Positions 1 through 14,899 of a DNA stretch of 16,267 bases are shown here, piece by piece (within the stretch, counting starts at the first letter, position 1; every line of letters begins with the position of its first letter). The translations under genes and the position numbers were made by a program. Below the pieces are notes generated by a model that saw only the letters and a program-made list of their open reading frames with translations, did no database searches and had not been told where the DNA came from. This DNA is from a virus (lineage: Duplodnaviria > Heunggongvirae > Uroviricota > Caudoviricetes), in the IMG/VR virus record IMGVR_UViG_2778261227_000013, positions 1 to 16,267 of that record; one strand, given 5' to 3'.

Positions 1-1731
1 TTAGCCTGAGATATATTCGTCCGCTGCGTTCTTGATTATTTTTGACCTAACATTTTTAATGTACGGTATTTTTTTCAGATCATCCCTCGAACAGTGAACG
101 ATATCACCCACTTTAGGATAGGTTTCTTTTATTCGGTCGCATATTGCGTTACTAATTGACAAGCAACTAACCGGATCATCAAGAAGTTGTCCTACAATTG
201 ACCTTGTTGGTACAGGTGTCCCACACTTAGGACAAAACTTCGCATCTCCAGGTAACTCAGCGGAACAAGTTTGACACTCATCAGCTGATTCTTTCAATTT
301 TTCTAAAAAACGCTCTAATTCAGAATCTGCTGCGCCAAATTCTTTATAATCAGCGAGAGATAATAGTGTTATTATCTCCCCGAACTTATTAGATACGAAT
401 GCTTTTTCAGTGAAAAGTAATGATAAATTAACCATGTAGCGCTGACCCGATTTTCGATTAGACATCTTCACGGACCCTTGCTTGGAAAGAACACCAGAAT
501 AACAAAGCAAATCTAGAGACAATCTAAGATTTGGAGAAATAACGGGAGGAAGAACAAAAAAAGCAGATTGGGTTTGAGTCTTTTTCTCTCTGTTATTTTT
601 CAATCTAAGCTCAGGGATAATACACTCCCTAAGAATATCAAGTCCAATGCGAACATGGTGAGAATACTTAGGTAATCGTTTTGAAAGCCCTAAATGATAA
701 GGTAATAATTCTTGATTGACATAATCCTGAGTGCAAGTTAAAAGATCTCTTTCAGTATAACCTTTCTCATATACTTTATTAAATAAATGGAGAAATGCTC
801 TAGGGTTTCCGGATGAAAGATGAATACATTGATCTAGCAAATCACCTTTAGCCAATATTCTCTTTTTTGCTGCTCCTTGTGTGACCCGTTTATCTAATAG
901 ATCACGATATAAACGTCGTGTTCGTTCCCGCCCAATATTTCCAGTTTCGTATCCTCCGAGGTTTATCATCATGGCATCTTGACCAACTTCAAAATTTTTA
1001 CCATACGATGTAATTGACGGATATACAGCCGCCTTAACTGCAATTTTACCGCCATGAAGCAATTTAAATATTTCGAAGAATATTTCTTGCTGTTCTGGTA
1101 TAAAGGTATGAGCAGCCTCATCAAATAAAAAAACAATTCTATTAAGTTGGTATTCTTGAATTATCTCCTTGATGATGTCATTTACATAACTTATATCATT
1201 AACCTTATCTAAAAAATCCTCTCCAATTTCATTCAACAATTTATCTGAAGAAGGATCTCTTGATAACCTTTGAAGCAGATGAATTTTAGATTGTAGAGCA
1301 TCTTTCATCCCAGTTATAGTTTTAATCCCAAAAATTCTTTGAAATGGATCACTGCTATTATTGTCACGAATGACATCTAAAAATATCAACTTTTCGTACA
1401 AAGCTTGTAGTAACTTAGCGCTTACCCATATCTGAAATGCATTTTTATTGTCAGCTTTAACCCCTTCCAGCAAAGTACTGGTTTTGAAATTAACATATAC
1501 CCCCACAATCTTTTTAACAGGAAAATCACTATCTAATTCAGCTTCTGCCGCTCTTAGAAGCATAGACTTTCCAATTCCTCTGGCACCCTGAATCAGATGA
1601 GAGCCCGCTATTTTTAGTTTTGCTACAACATCTTTTTCAAACTCACCAAGAACAGCCAGTTGTTTGACCTGTTTCAACTCAAGATCTTCGGTACGTGCTG
1701 CATGTAATAACTCAGTGTCTAACATAGACAT
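1..1731 (-). CDS. P-loop NTPase with C-terminal zinc ribbon and RpoA alpha-CTD-like helix-hairpin-helix domain; candidate defence/cargo protein
   Basis: Complete 576-aa ORF with ATG at 1729-1731 and TAA at 1-3. Walker A GARGIGKS near residue 50, Walker B-like IVFLFDEAAH, and an SSGNPRAF sensor-like motif. C-terminal CQTCS...CPKCG four-cysteine ribbon, then a segment resembling the RNA polymerase alpha C-terminal domain (LSISNAICDRIKE...VGDIV...DDLKKIPYIKNVRSKII). One-nucleotide TAATG overlap with the upstream gene; GAGGT upstream. Very AT-rich. Confidence 0.8.
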   Translation of the reverse strand: MSMLDTELLHAARTEDLELKQVKQLAVLGEFEKDVVAKLKIAGSHLIQGARGIGKSMLLRAAEAELDSDFPVKKIVGVYVNFKTSTLLEGVKADNKNAFQIWVSAKLLQALYEKLIFLDVIRDNNSSDPFQRIFGIKTITGMKDALQSKIHLLQRLSRDPSSDKLLNEIGEDFLDKVNDISYVNDIIKEIIQEYQLNRIVFLFDEAAHTFIPEQQEIFFEIFKLLHGGKIAVKAAVYPSITSYGKNFEVGQDAMMINLGGYETGNIGRERTRRLYRDLLDKRVTQGAAKKRILAKGDLLDQCIHLSSGNPRAFLHLFNKVYEKGYTERDLLTCTQDYVNQELLPYHLGLSKRLPKYSHHVRIGLDILRECIIPELRLKNNREKKTQTQSAFFVLPPVISPNLRLSLDLLCYSGVLSKQGSVKMSNRKSGQRYMVNLSLLFTEKAFVSNKFGEIITLLSLADYKEFGAADSELERFLEKLKESADECQTCSAELPGDAKFCPKCGTPVPTRSIVGQLLDDPVSCLSISNAICDRIKETYPKVGDIVHCSRDDLKKIPYIKNVRSKIIKNAADEYISG

Positions 1732-2420
1732 TATAAAACTACCTCACTAGATTTAGGAAATGAAGATAGCACTTCTTTTCTTATCTTATGACGAACAATA
1801 TTGGAATTAATTATCATACCCAAAACAACCTCAGCCAGACCTATGAACCTCTCCCAATCTTCACTTTCAAAAGTGAACTTATTAGGCAAATCAGTTTCAA
1901 ATGAGGTTATTTTTCCATGAACGATATCACTTAATTGTCCATAAATTTTCTGTGCTCTTCTCATATCAATAACACATACTTTCCCTCCTATCTTCTCATT
2001 TTCTGTGAAGTAGTCTATATAGCCTTGATTTGTTATATGCTTCAACATATCACTGAAACTTAAGTCTTCATCATGATTTTTCCAAGAATATACAACATGA
2101 GGCATATCCCAAAGATAAATAGATGCGACACCTAGTTCCAAAACTCTCCTTAGAACAATATTAGCTGGTTTATCTATGGCACAGGCAGAAAGATATAAAG
2201 AAGATGACGTATCAGCAATAATCTCACTAAAAATTTTAATACAAACATCATGATGAACTGATGTTTTCTTTTTATTCAAAATTTCAGCAATCGTGTTAAG
2301 AGTGAAAATTGAGATAATTACTTTATCTAATTTTTTATCTTGTATGCCCTGCCATTCACGAAAGTTACTATTGAACTTATCGCTTAGCATATTAATTATC
2401 TCAGTAGGTGATTTGTTCAT
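1731..2420 (-). CDS. Hypothetical protein (229 aa), first gene of the AT-rich cargo operon; no recognisable motif
   Basis: ORF with ATG at 2418-2420 and AAGGGA upstream. Its stop overlaps the start of the downstream NTPase gene by one nucleotide, suggesting translational coupling. Same AT-rich composition as its partner. Confidence 0.7.
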   Translation of the reverse strand: MNKSPTEIINMLSDKFNSNFREWQGIQDKKLDKVIISIFTLNTIAEILNKKKTSVHHDVCIKIFSEIIADTSSSLYLSACAIDKPANIVLRRVLELGVASIYLWDMPHVVYSWKNHDEDLSFSDMLKHITNQGYIDYFTENEKIGGKVCVIDMRRAQKIYGQLSDIVHGKITSFETDLPNKFTFESEDWERFIGLAEVVLGMIINSNIVRHKIRKEVLSSFPKSSEVVL

Positions 2421-2520
2421 TTATTATGCATATCCCTTGTTTTTATCTGTCAATCAATAAGATAATAAGTATAATTTTATAATACAAGAAAATAAAAAGC
2501 CTTATTGATGTGTTTTATTG
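2421..2520 (-). promoter_or_regulatory. AT-rich putative promoter region for the two-gene cargo operon
   Basis: About 100 bp of very AT-rich non-coding sequence directly upstream of the 229-aa gene, at the composition boundary with the island backbone. No specific -35/-10 hexamers were assigned. Confidence 0.3.
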
Positions 2521-2741
2521 CTACTAAAGCGCGCAATGCTCTCCCCAGCAGGCCTGCCCGCTACACAGAGCAGTTTTCATGCAAGTGCATGATAAAAGCC
2601 TATCAGAATCGGCAGTTTTCAACATAAACGCCCACTAGCTACAGAGTGCAATTTTTCGTCATCGGCAATATCAACAACTAAACGCATAAATCAGACAAAC
2701 TGCTACCCGGCTCAATTTTGAGCCGTCTTTTAATCAACGGG

Positions 2742-2921
2742 TTATCGCCGCAGCATGTCCGGTTTCTTCCACTGATACGGCCTCACATCATCATGCTGGT
2801 GGCGTTCCTGTTGCAGCACAACGGAAACAGGCGCTGAACACCTGTTAATTTTGCTTGCTGGTTGTTTGATTTCGGCAATGCTGCGGAGCATCTCCAGCAT
2901 ATCGGCTTCGGTGATGGTCAT
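2742..2921 (-). CDS. Possible small protein (59 aa), hypothetical
   Basis: ORF not in the supplied track (below its size cutoff). ATG at 2919-2921 with AAGGTG about 8 nt upstream; translation MTITEADMLEMLRSIAEIKQ...DMLRR; TAA at 2742-2744. Confidence 0.25.
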   Translation of the reverse strand: MTITEADMLEMLRSIAEIKQPASKINRCSAPVSVVLQQERHQHDDVRPYQWKKPDMLRR

Positions 2922-2952
2922 GATTTACACCTTAGGAAATCTTAGGGGCTGG

Positions 2953-3205
2953 TTGACACTTTCCGGCTTAGGACCTTAACAAATCTTAACATCGCAGGTT
3001 GACACACTTGACACTTTTTCGCGAAAAACCTTATCAAACCTTAGCATTTCTAAGCATGGCAACTTGACACTTTTCGCGATTTTTTCGGCTTTTTGACGTG
3101 GTAAATCTGGCGAAAGGCCAGTAATGGCGCGGCTTACAGCGAGGTTGACACTTTTTCGCGTTCAGAGTGTAAAGTGTCAACCTGGCAAGCTGCTCAACTT
3201 GACAC
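2953..3205. repeat. Array of seven TTGACAC motifs (six direct, one inverted), three extended as TTGACACTTTT(T)CGCG; candidate protein-binding or packaging-recognition array
   Basis: TTGACAC at 2953, 2999, 3008, 3064, 3145 and 3199; inverted GTGTCAA at 3174. A TTGACGTG variant lies at 3093. The array sits immediately downstream of the Nu1/TerS-like HTH gene. Confidence 0.6.
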
Positions 3206-3214
3206 TTTTTGATG

Positions 3215-3742
3215 TCATTGATGGTCTGATTTTTCCCATTCAGCCAGGGCGTTTAGCCCGGCTTCACTCCATGATTCCAGTTCATCGGGACAATCACCTG
3301 CAACATAGCAGAGTTCGCAACGCAGCATACGAATTGCCAGCCTGGCATTACCTCGCAAATTGTATTGTTCAAAGTAATGCTGCCCGTCGCAATCCTCAAG
3401 GCAGATAGCACCATCATCAAGAAAGTGCACTTCCCAGCCTAATTCCCCGGCTGCATCCTGCACACGCTGCTGTATGCCCTCGTCCGTTGCTGGCGCAGGA
3501 ATTTTACCGCCTCTGGCCTTAACTGCTTTCCAGAACTCGCCCCACGTCATTTCCAGCGTTCTCTCTGGCCACATTTCAGAAACTGTGTCTTTTCCCTGTG
3601 CTGGTGGGCTGTTCCGCTGCTCTGTCGCTTCCACATCGATTTTTTTACCGGACATGACCACTTCGCCTTTCTCGATCCAGTCGTAAACTGTCTGGCGGCT
3701 TACGCCTTTGTGTTTGGCATATTCTGCCTTACTCATCAGCAT
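3215..3742 (-). CDS. Nu1/small-terminase-like N-terminal HTH protein (175 aa); possible packaging-redirection (Rpp-like) protein
   Basis: N-terminal SKAEYAKHKGVSRQTVYDWIEKGEV resembles the winged-HTH of lambda Nu1-type small terminase subunits. AAGGGTGAG upstream of the ATG at 3742; 6-nt gap from the upstream gene. Confidence 0.6.
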   Translation of the reverse strand: MLMSKAEYAKHKGVSRQTVYDWIEKGEVVMSGKKIDVEATEQRNSPPAQGKDTVSEMWPERTLEMTWGEFWKAVKARGGKIPAPATDEGIQQRVQDAAGELGWEVHFLDDGAICLEDCDGQHYFEQYNLRGNARLAIRMLRCELCYVAGDCPDELESWSEAGLNALAEWEKSDHQ

Positions 3743-3748
3743 TATGAC

Positions 3749-4420
3749 TCACCCTTCTTTTTCCAGTTGAGCCAGCCGCCCGGATATTTCTTCCAGTTTT
3801 TCCAGGGCTGGCTTGCAGGCCGCATCAATAACGTCCCGGACCATTCCGGCAAGCTGTTCTTCTGCTGTCGGCGTTGTTACTTCCACGCCCGATGGTTTCC
3901 CGCCCTTATCCCAAACACCAAGCGGCACGAGCGCAACGTGATCGATAAGAAATGGCGTACCCTCAATAAAAAAATTGTCCTCGCCCATTACATCAGGAAC
4001 TTCTGCCCCACCTGAGGCACCACAAAACACAACCGACGGACTGGTGGATACCTCCCCTCGGGCTTTCTGGATGTAATCGATGATTTCCTGTCCGTAAATC
4101 CGGCATACGCCCCACACCTCGTCACCGCGAATATACGGCAACATGACGGTGCCAATAATGCGCGACCGTTCGCCCACGTCTTCAAGGGTTTTGCTTTCGG
4201 GATGGTCGATAATGACGGGTACTCCGGCGCAACGTTCCAGGAACTGCGGATTGAGATAAGTTTGCGGTGAACGCCAGACAAATTCTTTTTCTTCGGCGCG
4301 GTAGGCCATTCCGGTTCCTGTGATACGCAGGTTAACCAGCCACATGTTGGAAAACTGATAAGGCGACGGTAGCTGTCCGTCCCGAATCTGCTTCGCCGCC
4401 TCAATTTCTGTTAAAAGCAT
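3749..4420 (-). CDS. Hypothetical protein (223 aa)
   Basis: Long ORF in operon arrangement with the downstream HTH gene. No clear Shine-Dalgarno before the ATG at 4420, so the start is uncertain. An imperfect hairpin lies in the upstream intergenic region. Confidence 0.6.
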   Translation of the reverse strand: MLLTEIEAAKQIRDGQLPSPYQFSNMWLVNLRITGTGMAYRAEEKEFVWRSPQTYLNPQFLERCAGVPVIIDHPESKTLEDVGERSRIIGTVMLPYIRGDEVWGVCRIYGQEIIDYIQKARGEVSTSPSVVFCGASGGAEVPDVMGEDNFFIEGTPFLIDHVALVPLGVWDKGGKPSGVEVTTPTAEEQLAGMVRDVIDAACKPALEKLEEISGRLAQLEKEG

Positions 4421-4484: not shown

Positions 4485-5063
4485 TCATGCCCCCGCGAGG
4501 CTTGCAGTGTTAATTTTGACCAGGCGACGGGGAGGGATTTTGAAAGCACTAAGCCAGTTATTCGGATCCCCCTGATATTCAGTAATCCGCCGTCCGGCTT
4601 CATCCATTCTTACGGTTTTACGCAAATAGCCCGGCGTATTTTCCACAGCCCACTGAACACTGTCTTTTGCAGCCTGGTAAATCTGATCTTCCAGCACCGC
4701 CAGCGTTGCAGAATCTGAAACGGAACGAATATCCACATCACTGAATTTTTTAGCCAGCTTCTGTGCACCAATTAATGCACGCTTGCGGTAATCCATCGAC
4801 TTTTCGCCAGCAAACGGGGCCGGAGCGCGACGCCCCATATTGCTGTATGCGGAATCCGCTTTGGCCTGGGCTTCTGCCAGTGAGGATTCATCTTCGACTG
4901 ACGCGACGATGTTTTGATTAGCGTTATCCTCTTTTATGAAATCCTGTGCGGGGATCGCATTCAGAATTTCGATAATCTCCTGCGGAGTGCTTCCCTGCGA
5001 CTCTGACAGAGCGTTAACCACCTCCATCAGTTTTAATCGCAAATCTTCTTTGCTTGCTGGCAT
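4485..5063 (-). CDS. Hypothetical protein (about 192 aa)
   Basis: The track ORF begins at a GTG at 5072. An ATG at 5063 preceded by GAGAGGTGG is the more likely start (MPASKEDLRLK...). Confidence 0.6.
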   Translation of the reverse strand: MPASKEDLRLKLMEVVNALSESQGSTPQEIIEILNAIPAQDFIKEDNANQNIVASVEDESSLAEAQAKADSAYSNMGRRAPAPFAGEKSMDYRKRALIGAQKLAKKFSDVDIRSVSDSATLAVLEDQIYQAAKDSVQWAVENTPGYLRKTVRMDEAGRRITEYQGDPNNWLSAFKIPPRRLVKINTASLAGA

Positions 5064-5102
5064 TTTTACCACCTCTCTTTTTTCACCAAAAAATCACGAC
5101 CA

Positions 5103-5765: not shown

Positions 5766-6346
5766 GCGCCTGTTTTCTCCTTTGCTACCCGGCGCTGACG
5801 TTTGCGCTTCTCATTCAGCGCCACCAGCCGCGTTTCTGCGTCCTGTTGTTCCTGTGGTGTCACCTCGCCGCACGGCTGGCCTTTCAGGTCGTAGCGTACC
5901 CCACCAGCCATTAAGGCGCGGTAATAGCGCGGACACTGCGCATAAGATGCCAGCGTCGCACGTAATGCCCCTGGCCCGAATGCCAGCCCCCTGACGGCGA
6001 GATCCTGCATCAGGTCGTCGAATACCCCCACCTTTAGCGGCTTCGGTGCTTCCCGGCTGAATAATTCTGGCCACAACTCAGTGAGGCGGTTAACGCGTCT
6101 GCGGTTTTTTCGCTGCCGTTTGGTCATATGCCGCCACGGTGTCGCCCCTGTGGGCTTCTGCTGCGCTTTCTGGTTACCGGGCATCACTTTATGCGCCGAT
6201 GTGGTTTTATCCTGCTGCTGCTGCTGCGCCGCCTTCGTCGTTTTCTGCGGCGTGCCGTAAATGCCTTTCGGTTTTCTGTTAATGGTCAGCTTAGTCATGC
6301 TTTGCCCCATCGTTTTTACTGATTGTTTCATATCCGGTACTTTCAT
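5762..6346 (-). CDS. ProQ/FinO-domain RNA-binding protein (194 aa; start uncertain)
   Basis: Segment LTELWPELF...PLKVGVFDDL...LRATLASYAQCPRYYRALMAGGVRYDLKGQPCGEVT parallels the ProQ N-terminal FinO domain (PLKIGIFQDL...RVDLDGNPCGEL) as recalled. Basic, Q-rich N-terminus. No good ribbon-binding site before the first ATG. Confidence 0.75.
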   Translation of the reverse strand: MKVPDMKQSVKTMGQSMTKLTINRKPKGIYGTPQKTTKAAQQQQQDKTTSAHKVMPGNQKAQQKPTGATPWRHMTKRQRKNRRRVNRLTELWPELFSREAPKPLKVGVFDDLMQDLAVRGLAFGPGALRATLASYAQCPRYYRALMAGGVRYDLKGQPCGEVTPQEQQDAETRLVALNEKRKRQRRVAKEKTGA

Positions 6347-6351
6347 CTTCT

Positions 6352-6637
6352 GGGTAGAGGGGTAGACGGAGGGTAGATAACAAAAAATAGTCCTCTACCC
6401 ACTTAACTTAATGAAAAAAAACAACTTTCACACATTAGGTAGAGGGGTAGACCGTAAAATAGAAAAGTTTGAAACTTACTTTCTTACAATCTGTGTTTTC
6501 CTCTCGCTGTATAAAAAGTTTTTTGAGCGGGGATGTTGTCTACCCCTCTACCCACTTCTCTGAAAGCCTTGTGCTACGAGGGATTCAGCGGGTAGACAAT
6601 AAAAAATCACCATCTACCCTGTGTCTACCCATCTACC
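6352..6637. repeat. Iteron array GGGTAGA(G/C/T) in direct and inverted copies with A-rich spacers; putative replication origin
   Basis: Direct copies at 6352, 6360, 6371, 6438, 6445 and 6590. Inverted copies at 6393, 6538, 6546, 6612, 6623 and 6631. A-rich spacers between clusters. Located immediately downstream of the primase/helicase gene. Confidence 0.75.
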
Positions 6638-6654
6638 TGTTACGGGTATTACTC

Positions 6655-8403
6655 TTATAAAAATTCCTCGGTTCTCTCCGTTTGTATAACGTTGGTTTGT
6701 ATTCGTCCTTTAAAACCTCTTGTCAGGTATTCAGCCCCATATTCTCTTGCTGCTGACTTCATGGCCTTACCAAAATCACCGACACTTAATATTTCTTCTT
6801 CCCCCATATACTCCATAAAGGCGAGATATAGTCTGTACAGGCTTGTACGCGGATTAAGATCAGTTAATCTCTTACCGCCTCCCATCATCATCCCATGCGG
6901 TTCATCAAGAAATGCAAGCGCCGCACATAACCCAATGACAGGATCAGTTTCCTGTTTTATTTTCAGAGCTTCGGCACCGTCGCGCTGCTCCAACAATAAT
7001 TCCCGTGCTTTTTCTGGATCGGAAAAGTTAGCCAGTAATCGACGAATAATGACAGGTATTTCCGCCGCTATCTTTTGCGGTAACTCTTTATCCTTTTCGG
7101 TCTCCCTTACAATATTATCGAACCGAAAAATTACACGTCGACGCGCAACGCCTCCGGCCCGTTCGGTGAATGTCATCGGCACGTTATTTGTTGCCAGCAC
7201 GACGGACCTGATAATTGTTGTGAAACGCTTTTCATATTTCGGGTTAATTTCAACTGGATCTCCACCCGTTATTTTTTTGATGCCGGATCCTTCACCTGTA
7301 TATTTCGGCTGGTCTGCCAGGACAATAAGACGACTTCCGACAACCTGCGCACGCCCGCCAGCATCATCAAGCGATGTCATTTCAGCGCTTACCGTGTTCT
7401 GTTTCCCTGCCAGAAGGGTGGCTATGTGCGTGATTGTGCTCTTGCCGCTCCCGCCTTCCCCTGTGGCCTCAATAAACATCTGCCAGTCGTACCGGTTCGC
7501 CATAATCATGTACAGCGCGGCGCATATACGCATCATCTTTCGCGGGTCTTTTCCTGCGGCGTGATCAAGCCATTTATGAAAGTTTGGCGCGTTGTCGCGG
7601 ATGTTCTCCCCTGGTACTGGTGGCGTGTACTCAATGCCGTTATGCGTGGTGATCCAGTTATCCGGCGAGTGCGGGGAAAATTCGCCAGTTTTCATGTCAA
7701 GCACGCCATTAGAGAACGGCAATAAATCACCTGACGGTTCCCCCATTGGCCTGGCCATAACTTTTAAAGCATCCACTGCATTACTTATTGCTCTCCGACT
7801 AAACGATGTTCCGTTTTCTTCGTAAATAGCCACCATTTCACGACTAAGATCCAGTGTGCTTACCGGAACCCAAAAATCATCGCGCCAGACGTGGACAACC
7901 TCACTCTCCTGATTCATTGCTACATCCTGAAATCGTTCAGCTAAAAGTTTTGCCCTTTGGCTGTCCGCCATTCTGGAAAGAGATATTTTGTGTTTTTTCT
8001 CGGTCCTTCCTGACAGAATTTCTCCGCGCTCAGCCTGTTCGCGGATCCGTTGCAGGTAGTCGCGCCAGTTCTCCGGTTCCTGGTCGGTGATGCCTTTGTA
8101 TAATTTCGCCTCCTGTACGCCAGCCAGCGCCAGCTTTTCAGCGATAGCATTGATCTGGATTGGCTCGATCTCCCCCGCGAGATAGACACGCGCAAAGCGG
8201 CGTTTCTCGTCAATAATGCGGATATTCGCCAGGTCTGCCAGTTGCTTTGGTCCCAGATAAACAGGTGGCACGTTATCGCAGTGTTTTCGTCCTTCGCTTT
8301 CAATCCAGTGTTGGGCATGGGCGTAAGCATCCGTCCCGGCAAAAATGATTACCTCAGTGAATTTATCCTTCGGCTGATATTTCAAACTCGGTGCGTTTTT
8401 CAC
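6655..8403 (-). CDS. P4-type primase/helicase-like replication protein with D5-like NTPase (582 aa)
   Basis: Walker A GEGGSGKST and Walker B-like LIVLAD within a long ORF, followed directly by the iteron array. Family assignment is from recalled resemblance to phage/plasmid P4-family primase C-terminal regions. Start overlaps the upstream gene by 4 nt. Confidence 0.8.
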   Translation of the reverse strand: MKNAPSLKYQPKDKFTEVIIFAGTDAYAHAQHWIESEGRKHCDNVPPVYLGPKQLADLANIRIIDEKRRFARVYLAGEIEPIQINAIAEKLALAGVQEAKLYKGITDQEPENWRDYLQRIREQAERGEILSGRTEKKHKISLSRMADSQRAKLLAERFQDVAMNQESEVVHVWRDDFWVPVSTLDLSREMVAIYEENGTSFSRRAISNAVDALKVMARPMGEPSGDLLPFSNGVLDMKTGEFSPHSPDNWITTHNGIEYTPPVPGENIRDNAPNFHKWLDHAAGKDPRKMMRICAALYMIMANRYDWQMFIEATGEGGSGKSTITHIATLLAGKQNTVSAEMTSLDDAGGRAQVVGSRLIVLADQPKYTGEGSGIKKITGGDPVEINPKYEKRFTTIIRSVVLATNNVPMTFTERAGGVARRRVIFRFDNIVRETEKDKELPQKIAAEIPVIIRRLLANFSDPEKARELLLEQRDGAEALKIKQETDPVIGLCAALAFLDEPHGMMMGGGKRLTDLNPRTSLYRLYLAFMEYMGEEEILSVGDFGKAMKSAAREYGAEYLTRGFKGRIQTNVIQTERTEEFL

Positions 8404-9479: not shown

Positions 9480-9696
9480 GGTGCACCTCCTGCACATCAG
9501 CCATGATAATTTTTCCGGCCTTATCCAGTGCCTGATCGGCTTTTAGCTGCACAAATGCTAAATAATGGGAGATGCATTCTGATTCTCTGACTGCGTGTTT
9601 ATGCGCCACACCAGCGATAGCTGAAATCTCAATAAGTGAATCCATCAGCGTTTTGATAGCGTCTACCGCTGCATCAGGCCATGTTACATTACACAT
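9472..9696 (-). CDS. Hypothetical small protein (74 aa)
   Basis: AGGAGGTGGAG upstream of the ATG at 9696; 8-nt ATGTGTAA overlap with the upstream gene. Confidence 0.6.
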   Translation of the reverse strand: MCNVTWPDAAVDAIKTLMDSLIEISAIAGVAHKHAVRESECISHYLAFVQLKADQALDKAGKIIMADVQEVHHA

Positions 9697-10054
9697 GCTC
9701 CACCTCCTGGCGAATACGGGCAGCGAATACCATCACGCAGCCATCAGGGGATTGCTGGCGTGCTTCCTGTTCGCTGGTGGCCTCGATGTGAATTACGCGC
9801 GGTTGTGCTGTGCTCAGGGCGATAAAACGCCAGATAAAATTGTTCTCGCATTTCTGAATAAACAGCGTGTTTTCTTCGCGCCCTTTCCATGTTGCCGAGA
9901 TATAGCCCATGTCATTGAGCATCTCGCAGGCATCAACCAGCGTATCAGCAGCTACGTGTACAGTGTTTTTACCGTCAGCTATGCAATCACGGTGCACCGC
10001 CAGGAAGGTGTATATAAATTTAGGGTGAGTTTGGGTATGCTGTGTTCCAGCCAT
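9689..10054 (-). CDS. Hypothetical protein (121 aa), first gene of the leftward operon
   Basis: ATG at 10054 preceded by GAGGT. It is the C-terminal part of the 510-aa track ORF, whose upstream portion is judged non-coding or shadow. Confidence 0.6.
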   Translation of the reverse strand: MAGTQHTQTHPKFIYTFLAVHRDCIADGKNTVHVAADTLVDACEMLNDMGYISATWKGREENTLFIQKCENNFIWRFIALSTAQPRVIHIEATSEQEARQQSPDGCVMVFAARIRQEVEHV

Positions 10055-10143
10055 AATCGTTACCTCATTTAACGGTTTGGTTAGACGCCCCGCTACTGCC
10101 GCAAACAGTTCGGGGCGTTGTCGTTTACATCCTCTTACTGAGG

Positions 10144-10219
10144 TGTGATTTAAATTAAATTTAACTGAATCACAGGTCAAGTATTTTTTGTGATTCTTTT
10201 TTGTGTATACTGAATCACA
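10144..10219. promoter_or_regulatory. Divergent promoter/operator region with two 31-bp palindromes TGTGATT-N17-AATCACA
   Basis: Palindrome 1 at 10144-10174 and palindrome 2 at 10189-10219. Palindrome 2 encloses a TATACT -10-like hexamer (10206-10211) for the rightward gene. A leftward TTGACC -35-like hexamer (complement of 10175-10180) lies beside palindrome 1. Confidence 0.6.
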
Positions 10220-10241
10220 TCTTTTGTTTAGGAGAATGCAC

Positions 10242-10547
10242 ATGGCAAAAAACACTATCAACGACAAATCAAAACAGATTTCAATTCGTATCCCACATGA
10301 TGCTTTTGAAGGCATGGAATCCGTAAAACTGGACGGTGAAAGCAACGCCGGATTCATAGTAACCGCCATGCGCGGTGAGATCGCCCGCCGCCAGGCAGAA
10401 GGAAGCGGAGAAAATCCCCTGGTTTCTTCGCTCGATGCGCTGGCGCAGGTGGAAAAAATCGGAGTCAAAGCTGCCGAGGAGATCGGGCAGCTCGTCACCG
10501 TCGCACGTGAAGAACTCCAGCGCCGCAAGGCCAAAGAATCAGAATAA
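10242..10547 (+). CDS. Ribbon-helix-helix-like (Arc/MetJ/CopG-type) DNA-binding regulator (101 aa), tentative
   Basis: AGGAG 8 nt upstream of the ATG at 10242. N-terminal KQISIRIPHDAFEGMESV...NAGFIVTAMRGEIARRQ has the strand-helix-helix pattern; the C-terminus is charged and coiled-coil-like. Confidence 0.6.
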   Translation: MAKNTINDKSKQISIRIPHDAFEGMESVKLDGESNAGFIVTAMRGEIARRQAEGSGENPLVSSLDALAQVEKIGVKAAEEIGQLVTVAREELQRRKAKESE

Positions 10548-10604
10548 TAACTATCATCGCCGTGGTGTGAGGAACTCCGGCGCATTGCTTTACAGGTACA
10601 CAGA

Positions 10605-10799
10605 ATGACCAACAAAGAATCAACCAATACACCATCACCGGCACGGAAAAGACGGCGCAGAAAGATAGAGCATGAATCAGAAAGATTCGCGCCATGTGCT
10701 TTTGCCCTTGAGCAATTCCTTAAAGAGTACAGGCGCACAAAAATGGGATCGCATACCTGGAAAACATCGCGGCATGGCAATGTTAAAGAGCATGAATAG
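10605..10799 (+). CDS. Possible small basic protein (64 aa), hypothetical
   Basis: ORF downstream of and co-oriented with the RHH-like gene; weak AGGT upstream. Composition is plausible (K/R/E-rich), whereas the opposite-strand frame here is Cys/Ser-rich. Confidence 0.3.
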   Translation: MTNKESTNTPSPARKRRRRKIEHESERFAPCAFALEQFLKEYRRTKMGSHTWKTSRHGNVKEHE

Positions 10800-10829
10800 C
10801 CCACCAGCAAGCCAGCACACTGATCACAT

Positions 10830-11221
10830 TGCCCACCAGCCGCAAATCTGGCATTGTTGGCAATGTGTTCAAGTGTGTAGCTTTCCCACTGGTGGCCCTC
10901 TGCAGTCGCCTTTGTTTTATCCAGAACGAAATCAGACATCAGATTGATCAGCACCTGGTGACCTGACAAAATCGCATCAGTCGCGCCACCAGCAAAATTT
11001 TTTGCTTTCCGGACAGCGTGGCTAACGGCATTTTGCAGCAAAATATTCTGCATTTCTGGCGTACTGTAGTAACAGTGATCAGCGCCTTCACTCTGTGCGA
11101 CCACAACGCTATAATCTGCCTCGTAGACAGTAAGCAATATGGCGCAGTAGGCTATTCGTTCACAAAGGCGCTCCGGCAACGGGGCGCTTTCTCTTTTTGT
11201 AACGGTCAGAGCGTTACACAT
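10830..11221 (-). CDS. Candidate gene with unresolved 3' end (5' part of the 510-aa track ORF); possibly a remnant
   Basis: ATG at 11221 preceded by GGAGGA, with an 8-nt ATGTGTAA overlap to the antirepressor gene stop. The first roughly 130 codons look protein-like, but there is no in-frame stop until 9689. The 3' coordinate is approximate. Confidence 0.3.
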
Positions 11222-14823: not shown

Positions 14824-14899
14824 TGGTGCCGATAATAGGAGTCGAACCTACGACCTTCGCATTACGAATGCGCTGCTCTACCAACTGAGCTATATCGGC
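14824..14899 (-). tRNA. thrW: tRNA-Thr (anticodon CGU)
   Basis: The reverse complement reads GCCGATATAGCTCAGTTGGTAGAGCAGCGCATTCGTAATGCGAAGGTCGTAGGTTCGACTCCTATTATCGGCACCA: a 76-nt cloverleaf-compatible sequence with a CGT anticodon and encoded CCA end. Confidence 0.96.

Follow-up and report, generated by a model that had tools for sequence, protein, structure and literature searches.

The best-described precedent for the locus examined here is the phage satellite EcCICFT073, in which Rpp redirects packaging and which possesses a private cosB (Fillol-Salom et al. 2019, PMC6739421). In this island, the cosQ-cosN-cosB unit cos1 directly precedes rppA, and the cosB of cos1 is the only one to respond to RppA; Rpp proteins also bind TerS, thereby blocking helper packaging, and no R elements were identified in the cosB of PICIs by that paper (PMC6739421). 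Three CCGGACAT repeats that follow rppA were considered here as Rpp sites and set aside, since the supplement of the same paper places them in cos2, which is not RppA-responsive (PMC6739421). To date, such redirection has been described for one protein family in one experimentally studied island. A further point of reference is Serratia phage BZS1 (vB_SspM_BZS1): analysis of its virion DNA established the 12-nt 5' overhang GCATTGCGCGCC (PMC7556043).

The window analysed here, meaning the whole stretch of 16,267 bp, is a PICI-type phage satellite integrated at tRNA-Thr, the thrW site. The PICI features found in it comprise an integrase by the tRNA-Thr gene, an AlpA-type gene, a primase with a downstream origin, a same-strand gene order (all genes lie on the minus strand) and an incomplete set of virion genes. 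From the tRNA end, its parts are as follows.

14827-14899, minus strand: tRNA-Thr gene, followed by the integrase, the int-alpA RNA and a small HTH/AlpA-type gene
Minus strand, between the small HTH gene and the primase: antirepressor gene
6655-8403, minus strand: D5_N/DUF5906 primase
6339-6640, directly after the primase gene: replication origin with GGGTAGA iterons in both orientations and an AT-rich centre
Minus strand, after the primase: ProQ/FinO and PerC genes
Minus strand, before the 175-aa HTH gene: a 195-aa protein and a DUF2213 protease-like protein
3215-3742, minus strand: gene of the 175-aa protein (winged HTH 1-44, linker 45-60, C-terminal alpha/beta domain 61-170)
2742-2921, minus strand: 59-aa ORF on the far side of the array, a relative of the last EcCICFT073 ORF
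1-2420, minus strand: AT-rich pair of cargo genes, one encoding an ORC/Cdc6-like P-loop protein

The HTH gene is thus the final gene of an operon with capsid-related genes, and together with the repeat array that follows it forms a module at the border between conserved genes and variable defence-gene cargo. Gene and array, about 89-96% identical, also occur in elements with an unrelated replicase and other capsid-related genes.

The array occupies the 293-bp gap between the stop codon of the 175-aa ORF and the start codon of the 59-aa ORF, with its edge 10 bp from the stop codon of the HTH gene; it is therefore downstream of this gene, and inverted relative to it. The following elements were recognised in the gap.

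2953-3205, both strands: exact TTGACAC array, seven copies at 2953, 2999, 3008, 3064, 3145, 3174 (minus strand) and 3199
2924-2930, plus strand: variant TTTACAC, overlapping the start codon of the 59-aa ORF
3167-3173, minus strand: variant TTTACAC, 7 bp from the inverted site at 3174
2929-3053, plus strand: another family of repeats, ACCTTAnnAAAtCTTA (YTAAG-N5-YTAAG), present four times in between the TTGACAC sites
3103-3143: conserved spacer between two clusters of sites, containing CCAGTAATGGCG, the reverse complement of CGCCATTACTGG

Across the 16267-bp window, TTGACAC was observed 8 times versus 1.9 expected, and seven of these eight exact copies fall in a stretch of 253 bp. Such clustering is far beyond chance: in 100000 uniform placements, seven of eight copies fell inside 260 bp 0 times. 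The two TTTACAC variants, at 2924 (plus) and 3167 (minus), bring the array to nine sites spanning 2924-3205, and 331 bp contain nine of the ten TTKACAC sites found in 16.3 kb. The variant (GTGTAAA/TTTACAC) is seen again in the arrays of relatives, and the tandem 7-bp packing at 3167/3174 recurs both in a paralogous satellite group described below and in the GGTAACA repeats of BZS1. On the plus strand the extended site follows the consensus (R)(S)TTGACACTTT, which in the sense of the HTH gene reads AAAGTGTCAA(C/G)(C/T). An earlier note on this DNA had reported seven TTGACAC copies, one of them inverted, directly downstream of an HTH gene, and both statements hold. It had also given three copies an identical 16-bp extension, a count that has to be reduced to two: the 16-mer TTGACACTTTTTCGCG is present at 3008 and 3145 only, while the copy at 3064 is one T shorter (TTGACACTTTTCGCGA) and that at 3199 reads TTGACACTTTTTGATG.

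The sequence between the sites is itself partly shared with relatives. The ACCTTAnnAAAtCTTA copy at 2929-2947 marks the distal limit of the conserved module, and two blocks related to it, GCTTAGAAATGCTAAGG and CCCCTAAGATTTCCTAAG, are kept in Klebsiella/Raoultella-type and Pantoea relatives, just as the CGCCATTACTGG block is common to relatives and the spacer of the window. This spacer (3103-3143) also aligns with Sepvirinae Stx phages at 88% over 40 bp; in those phages the match is located upstream of antB, far from the terminase genes, which indicates that it marks no cos there. Viewed as a hidden cosN, the spacer is loosely similar by eye to lambda GTTACGGGGCGGC, but it varies more than the R sites among close relatives and is no better conserved than its surroundings, and it is therefore not convincing in that role. 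Near 3030-3043 there is a partial match, by eye only, to the IHF site WATCAANNNNTTR. A scan against Rfam gave no match in the array.

Beyond the window, 22 loci from other species were fetched via protein alignment, 16 of which were analysable. In 12 of these 16 loci, from other genera, the 320 bp that follow the stop codon contain 3-7 copies of AAAGTGTCAA(C/G)(C/T); the remaining four carry the gene with no clear array. Site density amounts to 8.0 per kb in the 320 bp after the gene versus 0.076 per kb in the rest, an enrichment of about 100-fold, the consensus site being nearly missing from the other ~12 kb of each locus. Genera with an array comprise Rouxiella, Raoultella, Buttiauxella, Pantoea, Lelliottia, Pseudocitrobacter, Enterobacter and Escherichia, and the usual arrangement in relatives includes one inverted copy. 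When a viral collection was scanned for the inverted site pair, 83 loci were recovered, and in all 47 of the scanned loci that encode a full-length homologue the array begins right after the gene. The layout is kept across genera, including the non-repeat blocks CGCC(A/G)TTACTGG, GCTTAGAAATGCTAAGG and a terminal CCCCTAAGATTTCCTAAG, past which the loci split into different cargo. The sites are strictly conserved whereas the flanking sequence drifts. The distal array end, to which a pac-like option raised below refers, is where relatives diverge into different cargo. Among 5426 complete E. coli genomes, about 170 carry the module. E. coli TUM9757 and SCU-316 are two strains with this same segment.

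That the N-terminus of the encoded protein resembles a Nu1-type small terminase, as had been proposed from the sequence earlier, is borne out by several comparisons. Residues 1-42 match PHROG 57 'terminase small subunit' (E = 1.5e-7), with weaker matches to excisionase and MerR-type models, and residues 3-40 share 47% identity and 76% positives with the N-terminus of the Nu1-type TerS of BZS1, a relation that was reached only via the DNA of the paralogous satellite group. The likely recognition stretch is SRQTVYDW in the window protein and SRKTVTSW in BZS1 TerS. Homologues form 115 clusters from Escherichia, Citrobacter, Klebsiella, Raoultella, Enterobacter, Serratia, Pantoea, Rouxiella and Yersinia, all with absent or generic names, and some database entries label relatives 'repressor' or 'MerR family regulator'. 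In the family alignment residues 1-41 are nearly invariant, whereas the rest falls to about 35% identity; a constant HTH with a divergent C-terminus is compatible with a DNA target that stays the same and protein partners that vary. A search for covariation of HTH residue 18 (T/A) with site position 3 (G/T) gave none.

In the AlphaFold model (pLDDT 89), residues 1-44 form a winged HTH and residues 61-170 an alpha/beta domain, with a disordered linker between them. Structural matches were led by Mycobacteriophage Xis (7.0), followed by a small terminase (7lxs, 6.7), the lambda small terminase (6hn7_B, 6.4), BldC (6.0), RdfS (5.7), P2 Cox (5.7) and RppC (6hn7_A, 5.6). The N-terminal fold of the TerS (Nu1) DNA-binding domain, which is a feature of Rpp proteins, is thus present; however, since this HTH fold is common to excisionases, BldC, P2 Cox and TerS, the fold alone assigns no function. 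Proteins of this fold class occupy several neighbouring repeats in a head-to-tail manner, a habit that would fit an array without deciding its function. For the C-terminal domain, only weak dsRBD-like structural matches were obtained, and a Foldseek search against the PDB and viral models returned weak HTH matches only, with none informative for this domain. Sequence searches against PDB chains, RppC included, gave no significant match either with the protein or with a 100-sequence profile; NCBIfam gave only sub-threshold excisionase/RacR HTH matches, PADLOC gave no match, and tblastn of the 175-aa protein against isolated phages gave nothing at E <= 0.01. Literature searches brought up no paper on this protein family or on the TTGACAC sites.

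The scan of the viral collection for the inverted site pair also yielded a second, paralogous satellite group (L044, L070, L077, L083, L084, L102, L107, L111 and L117), and it is here that the evidence is strongest. Its members encode a protein of 186-209 aa that has the HTH alone in common with the window protein (MSLMSVSQYAKHAGMSRQALYSWE...; hhalign probability 96.8, 43 columns). One of them, L084, has a DUF927 replicase, carries an OLD-type nuclease as its cargo and is integrated in a major capsid gene of lambda-like type. Members of the group have the array upstream of the HTH gene, and a complete lambda-family cos is immediately upstream of the array, the order being cosQ GGGTCCYTCC, 27 nt, ACGG|GCATTGCGCGCC|, a CTAGCTATnAActTTTGAAtTTGA block, the TTGACAC/TTTACAC array (beginning TTGACAC-TTTACAC-TTGACAC, then more sites) and the HTH gene. 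BZS1 (Serratia) and phiNP (Citrobacter) have an identical cosQ, 12 nt and following block before their Nu1-type terS; after the block come GGTAACA repeats, of which three are ahead of the start codon and a further five or more are within terS. The shared cosQ/cosN and the differing repeats indicate that these satellites keep the helper-type cosQ and cosN and swap GGTAACA for TTGACAC, and they also encode a protein with an HTH variant of the helper's. The paralogous repeats therefore sit where cosB would be, with a BZS1-type cosQ-cosN on one side and the HTH gene on the other, and this layout is the known Rpp arrangement of a helper cosN, a private cosB and a TerS-like adaptor.

In the window itself, repeated R-like elements beside a Nu1-type HTH gene, which are part of a lambda-type cos, are present as nine sites. 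Lambda cosN GGGCGGCGACCT has no match with two or fewer mismatches in the window, the count at three mismatches being at chance level, and an nhmmer profile of the lambda, EcCICFT073, BZS1/phiNP and paralogous-group cos found nothing in the window or in any subfamily locus. With no lambda-family cosQ-cosN in the subfamily, the site at which a Nu1/gpA-type terminase would cut is missing. The only recognisable cos in the window is of a different family and had gone unmentioned in the earlier note.

2529-2593: P2-family cos, about 400 bp from the array
2536-2554, plus strand: equivalent of the 19-nt cohesive end ATGCTCTCCCCAGCAGGCC

The segment 2529-2593 aligns with the cos of ENT90, pro483 and Yersinia Eganvirus, which lies about 190 bp past their portal gene (nhmmer E-value 4e-20). 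With an iterated profile, a P2-type cos was detected in about 16 of roughly 75 subfamily loci, usually 0.4-1.6 kb beyond the array; L005 and L006 have no P2-type cos. On the plus strand it is 5' of the TTGACAC sites, the same polarity as from cosN to array in the paralogous group. Its flanks are unlike those of the BZS1 cos, and it contains GCATTGCGCGCt, which equals 11 of the 12 bases of the BZS1 overhang. One set of relatives becomes similar to the window inside this cos (2531), another at the distal end of the array, breakpoints that give a hint of DNA ends at either place.

Taken together, these comparisons largely support the proposal of the earlier note that the array is a TerS-like binding array for packaging, because the paralogous array lies at the cosB position and the arrangement is Rpp-like. 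The conserved module, the Nu1-like HTH and the paralogous cosB position all speak for the proposal; the position of the array downstream of the gene, the lack of a lambda cosN and a likeness to Rpp that is confined to the HTH do not fit it. It is very probable that the 175-aa protein binds the TTGACAC sites, given their co-occurrence, the invariant HTH, a fold class of array binders and the paralogous architecture. That the predicted protein-array complex serves packaging specificity is a weaker claim, which we consider somewhat favoured mainly on the strength of the paralogous group and the Rpp precedent.

The array might instead be an operator through which a transcription regulator of the Cox/BldC/Xis class switches the 59-aa ORF and the cargo (defence) genes, a reading that we consider unlikely and still worth weighing. 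Judged by its fold, the protein is as close to BldC, P2 Cox, AlpA and excisionase-type regulators as to TerS, the naming of some relatives as repressors or MerR family regulators points the same way, the array is always at the border of conserved genes and variable cargo, and the island remnants L024 and L030 retain just the tRNA, HTH gene, array and cargo. However, a promoter and terminator scan of 2300-3900 found no sigma-70-like promoter pair in the array on either strand, even though TTGACA equals the -35 consensus, nine sites exceed the need of a simple operator, the HTH is closest in sequence to a terminase, and the paralogous array lies between a bona fide cos and the gene, as lambda cosB does. 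This paralogous link of the array to a complete cos also speaks against a reading of pure interference, in which the protein would titrate the helper small terminase or another helper protein and the array would concentrate or stabilise the protein, with no packaging of the satellite. Such a role has a precedent in Rpp, which binds TerS and blocks helper packaging (PMC6739421), and it would accord with a subfamily that has no matching cosN and with the lack of a recognisable cos near the array in most relatives; nevertheless, titration needs no DNA array, and the sites are strictly conserved amid drifting flanks, so that we rate interference alone as improbable.

Two further explanations concern other processes that use repeated sites. 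Mycobacteriophage Xis is the top structural match, excisionase models match weakly and Xis proteins bind tandem repeats, all of which would suit sites for a recombination directionality factor (excisionase) in the arm of an attachment site. The array is, however, at least 2.9 kb from the island end (the cargo at 1-2420 lies between, and attR is beyond the window) rather than within ~200 bp of an att core, the cargo between array and island end differs in length among relatives, and an AlpA-type gene with the int-alpA RNA is already present beside the integrase; chiefly because of the distance to the island end, this explanation is disfavoured and appears very unlikely. Least probable of all, by a narrow step, is that the repeats are iterons of the satellite replication origin. 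Although iteron-like repetition in a non-coding gap is what an origin would display, a separate, typical origin follows the primase gene at 6339-6640, so the TTGACAC array is not expected to be the origin. Moreover, the array is unchanged beside an unrelated DUF927 replicase in L006; the repeats do not track the replicase, and their retention there, together with the separate origin, points to independence from replication.

Under the preferred packaging reading, the TTGACAC array would act as a private, cosB-like signal made of putative R elements, to which the 175-aa protein from the adjoining upstream gene would bind. The winged HTH would be a close copy of the Nu1-type DNA-binding domain with changed recognition residues. 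Like Nu1, Xis, Cox and BldC on their own repeats, the protein may occupy the nine sites as several adjacent copies. Its C-terminal alpha/beta domain, which is variable, might then contact the helper terminase, and packaging would be steered to satellite DNA and away from helper DNA, as by Rpp in EcCICFT073. Site binding, terminase recruitment and the position of the cut are steps that we infer, and the P2-type cos at 2529-2593, recognised by alignment, is the only candidate cut site seen. Several findings count against the packaging reading: the sole recognisable cos is P2-type, a class whose small terminases are not known to be of the Nu1 type, and occurs in only about 1 in 5 relatives, the fold is common to Cox, BldC and excisionases, four of 16 loci have no clear array, and the C-terminal domain has no informative structural match. 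A tentative variant, to which we attach a low probability, is that the gene-then-array module is a packaging-initiation signal that operates without a lambda-type cosN, either through a pac-like cut in or at the distal end of the array or through an adaptor that links Nu1-type recognition to the P2-type cos. If the adaptor option were true, one satellite could be packaged by both lambda-like (Nu1/gpA terminase) and P2-like helpers.

With regard to significance, the analysis adds a second Enterobacterales protein family that has only the terminase-like DNA-binding head in common with Rpp, together with an explicit 12-bp site consensus for the 175-aa protein family. Satellites with a BZS1-type cosQ/cosN and TTGACAC for GGTAACA represent a natural swap experiment, and the sites and residues listed here can be tested for the re-coding of packaging specificity. 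Since the module borders defence-gene cargo, a start of packaging at this place would bear on the movement of defence genes between strains.

Among known systems, several share the array-binding fold, the cos or the gene order of the window, each in part. Lambda Xis, P2 Cox and Streptomyces BldC have the same fold and bind repeat arrays, acting in recombination or transcription; unlike these proteins, the window HTH has a terminase as its best sequence relative, and the paralogous arrays are located at a cos. The window likewise carries a P2-family cos, the P2/P4 kind known from satellite P4 and Peduoviridae helpers. The layout of P4, in which a late operon is followed by cos and variable cargo, is matched by the order of the window; however, P4 is not known to have a TerS-like protein or a repeat array beside cos, and the other genes of the window element are PICI-like, not P4-like. 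The BZS1/phiNP cos resembles the window array in having 7-bp units in tandem beside a terminase-type gene, but its repeats are GGTAACA in place of TTGACAC, its protein is a true small terminase followed by terL, and none of its cosQ-cosN sequence is present in the window.

The comparison with Rpp is the closest. In both cases a satellite encodes a protein with a TerS(Nu1)-like winged HTH and carries repeats unlike those of the helper. The gene order also agrees: in EcCICFT073 (L011), rppA is last in an operon with capsid-like genes and is followed by cos2 and a 93-aa ORF, which has its N-terminus and a C-terminal Y(Q/H)WKKP(D/E)xLRR in common with the 59-aa ORF of the window, and the order of cos1 and rppA is that of cosQ, cosN, private cosB and gene in the paralogous group. 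A BLASTP comparison with RppA (L011:22660-23094) aligned only residues 2-26 with 7-31 (36% identity, E = 0.001); by sequence, the window protein is not a homologue of RppA-C beyond the HTH. In addition, cos1 is upstream of rppA, whereas the window array is downstream of its gene and has no lambda-type cosN; R-like elements are explicit here, in 7-9 copies with a 12-bp consensus, whereas the Rpp paper named none in the cosB of PICIs. The module is best read as belonging to a second Rpp-like adaptor family, widespread and with defined R elements, whose arrangement the known model explains only in part.

The window contains the following further features:

1-2420: pair of AT-rich cargo genes at the end of the island
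2529-2593: P2-family cos, with the equivalent of the 19-nt segment at 2536-2554
2929-3053: a second family of repeats (YTAAG-N5-YTAAG) interspersed among the TTGACAC sites
3749-4420 and 4485-5072: DUF2213 protease-like protein and 195-aa protein, matching PHROG 6216
6339-6640: origin-like region immediately past the primase gene
9689-11221: 510-aa ORF with an Icd-like cell-division-inhibitor domain at its end

The P2-family cos aligns to the cos sites of ENT90, pro483 and Yersinia Eganvirus phages, and within it, on the gene-sense strand, lies GCATTGCGCGCt, which equals 11 of the 12 bases of the cohesive end of the Serratia phage BZS1. This cos was not among the features listed in the earlier note. 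The second repeat family, one copy of which forms the dyad CTTAG-N5-CTAAG, is kept in relatives of other genera. Farther along the array region, a 40-bp segment (window 3103-3143; 2501-2540 in the comparison locus L007) matches many Sepvirinae Stx phages at 88%, and its counterpart in these phages precedes the antirepressor gene antB by about 270 bp.

Repeats are also found at other loci. In the helper-type phage BZS1, at least five additional GGTAACA repeats are present within terS (L120 200-310), where they encode GNK repeats; because the repeats continue inside the gene, cosB of this phage may reach into the coding region. In EcCICFT073 (L011 23135-23260), three CCGGACAT repeats, one of them inverted, are placed between the rppA stop codon and the inverted lambda cosN belonging to cos2, a site reported not to respond to RppA (PMC6739421). 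Metagenomic phage contigs (L042 11170-11950, as well as L058, L067, L072 and L098) carry 13-20 copies of AAAGTGTCAA/AAAGTGTAAA, with a small ORF and terL following 1.2-1.9 kb downstream of them. These contigs yielded no HTH protein of the SRQ type.

With regard to the remaining genes, the cargo pair encodes a P-loop protein of 576 aa, which resembles ORC/Cdc6 and has a zinc ribbon, together with a 229-aa partner. It was weakly matched by an NCBIfam anti-phage model and is considered a candidate defence system; relatives carry different cargo at this position. The DUF2213 protease-like and 195-aa proteins match separate parts of PHROG 6216 (545 positions) and may represent a single phage protein in split form. 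In the close relative L001, the region corresponding to the 510-aa ORF contains a short Icd-like gene. The origin-like region consists of an AT-rich centre flanked by GGGTAGA(G/C) iterons in both orientations.

Two comparison loci (L024 5642-6492 and L030 5508-6487) have a tRNA-Thr(CGU) upstream of the HTH gene, at a distance of less than 420 bp (284 bp in L024), and look like decayed islands in which the HTH gene, array and cargo alone have been retained. In L084 (11084-11785), a satellite of the paralogous group sits within a truncated lambda-like major capsid gene, in agreement with the published 'helper-embedded satellites' (bioRxiv 10.1101/2022.07.18.500453).
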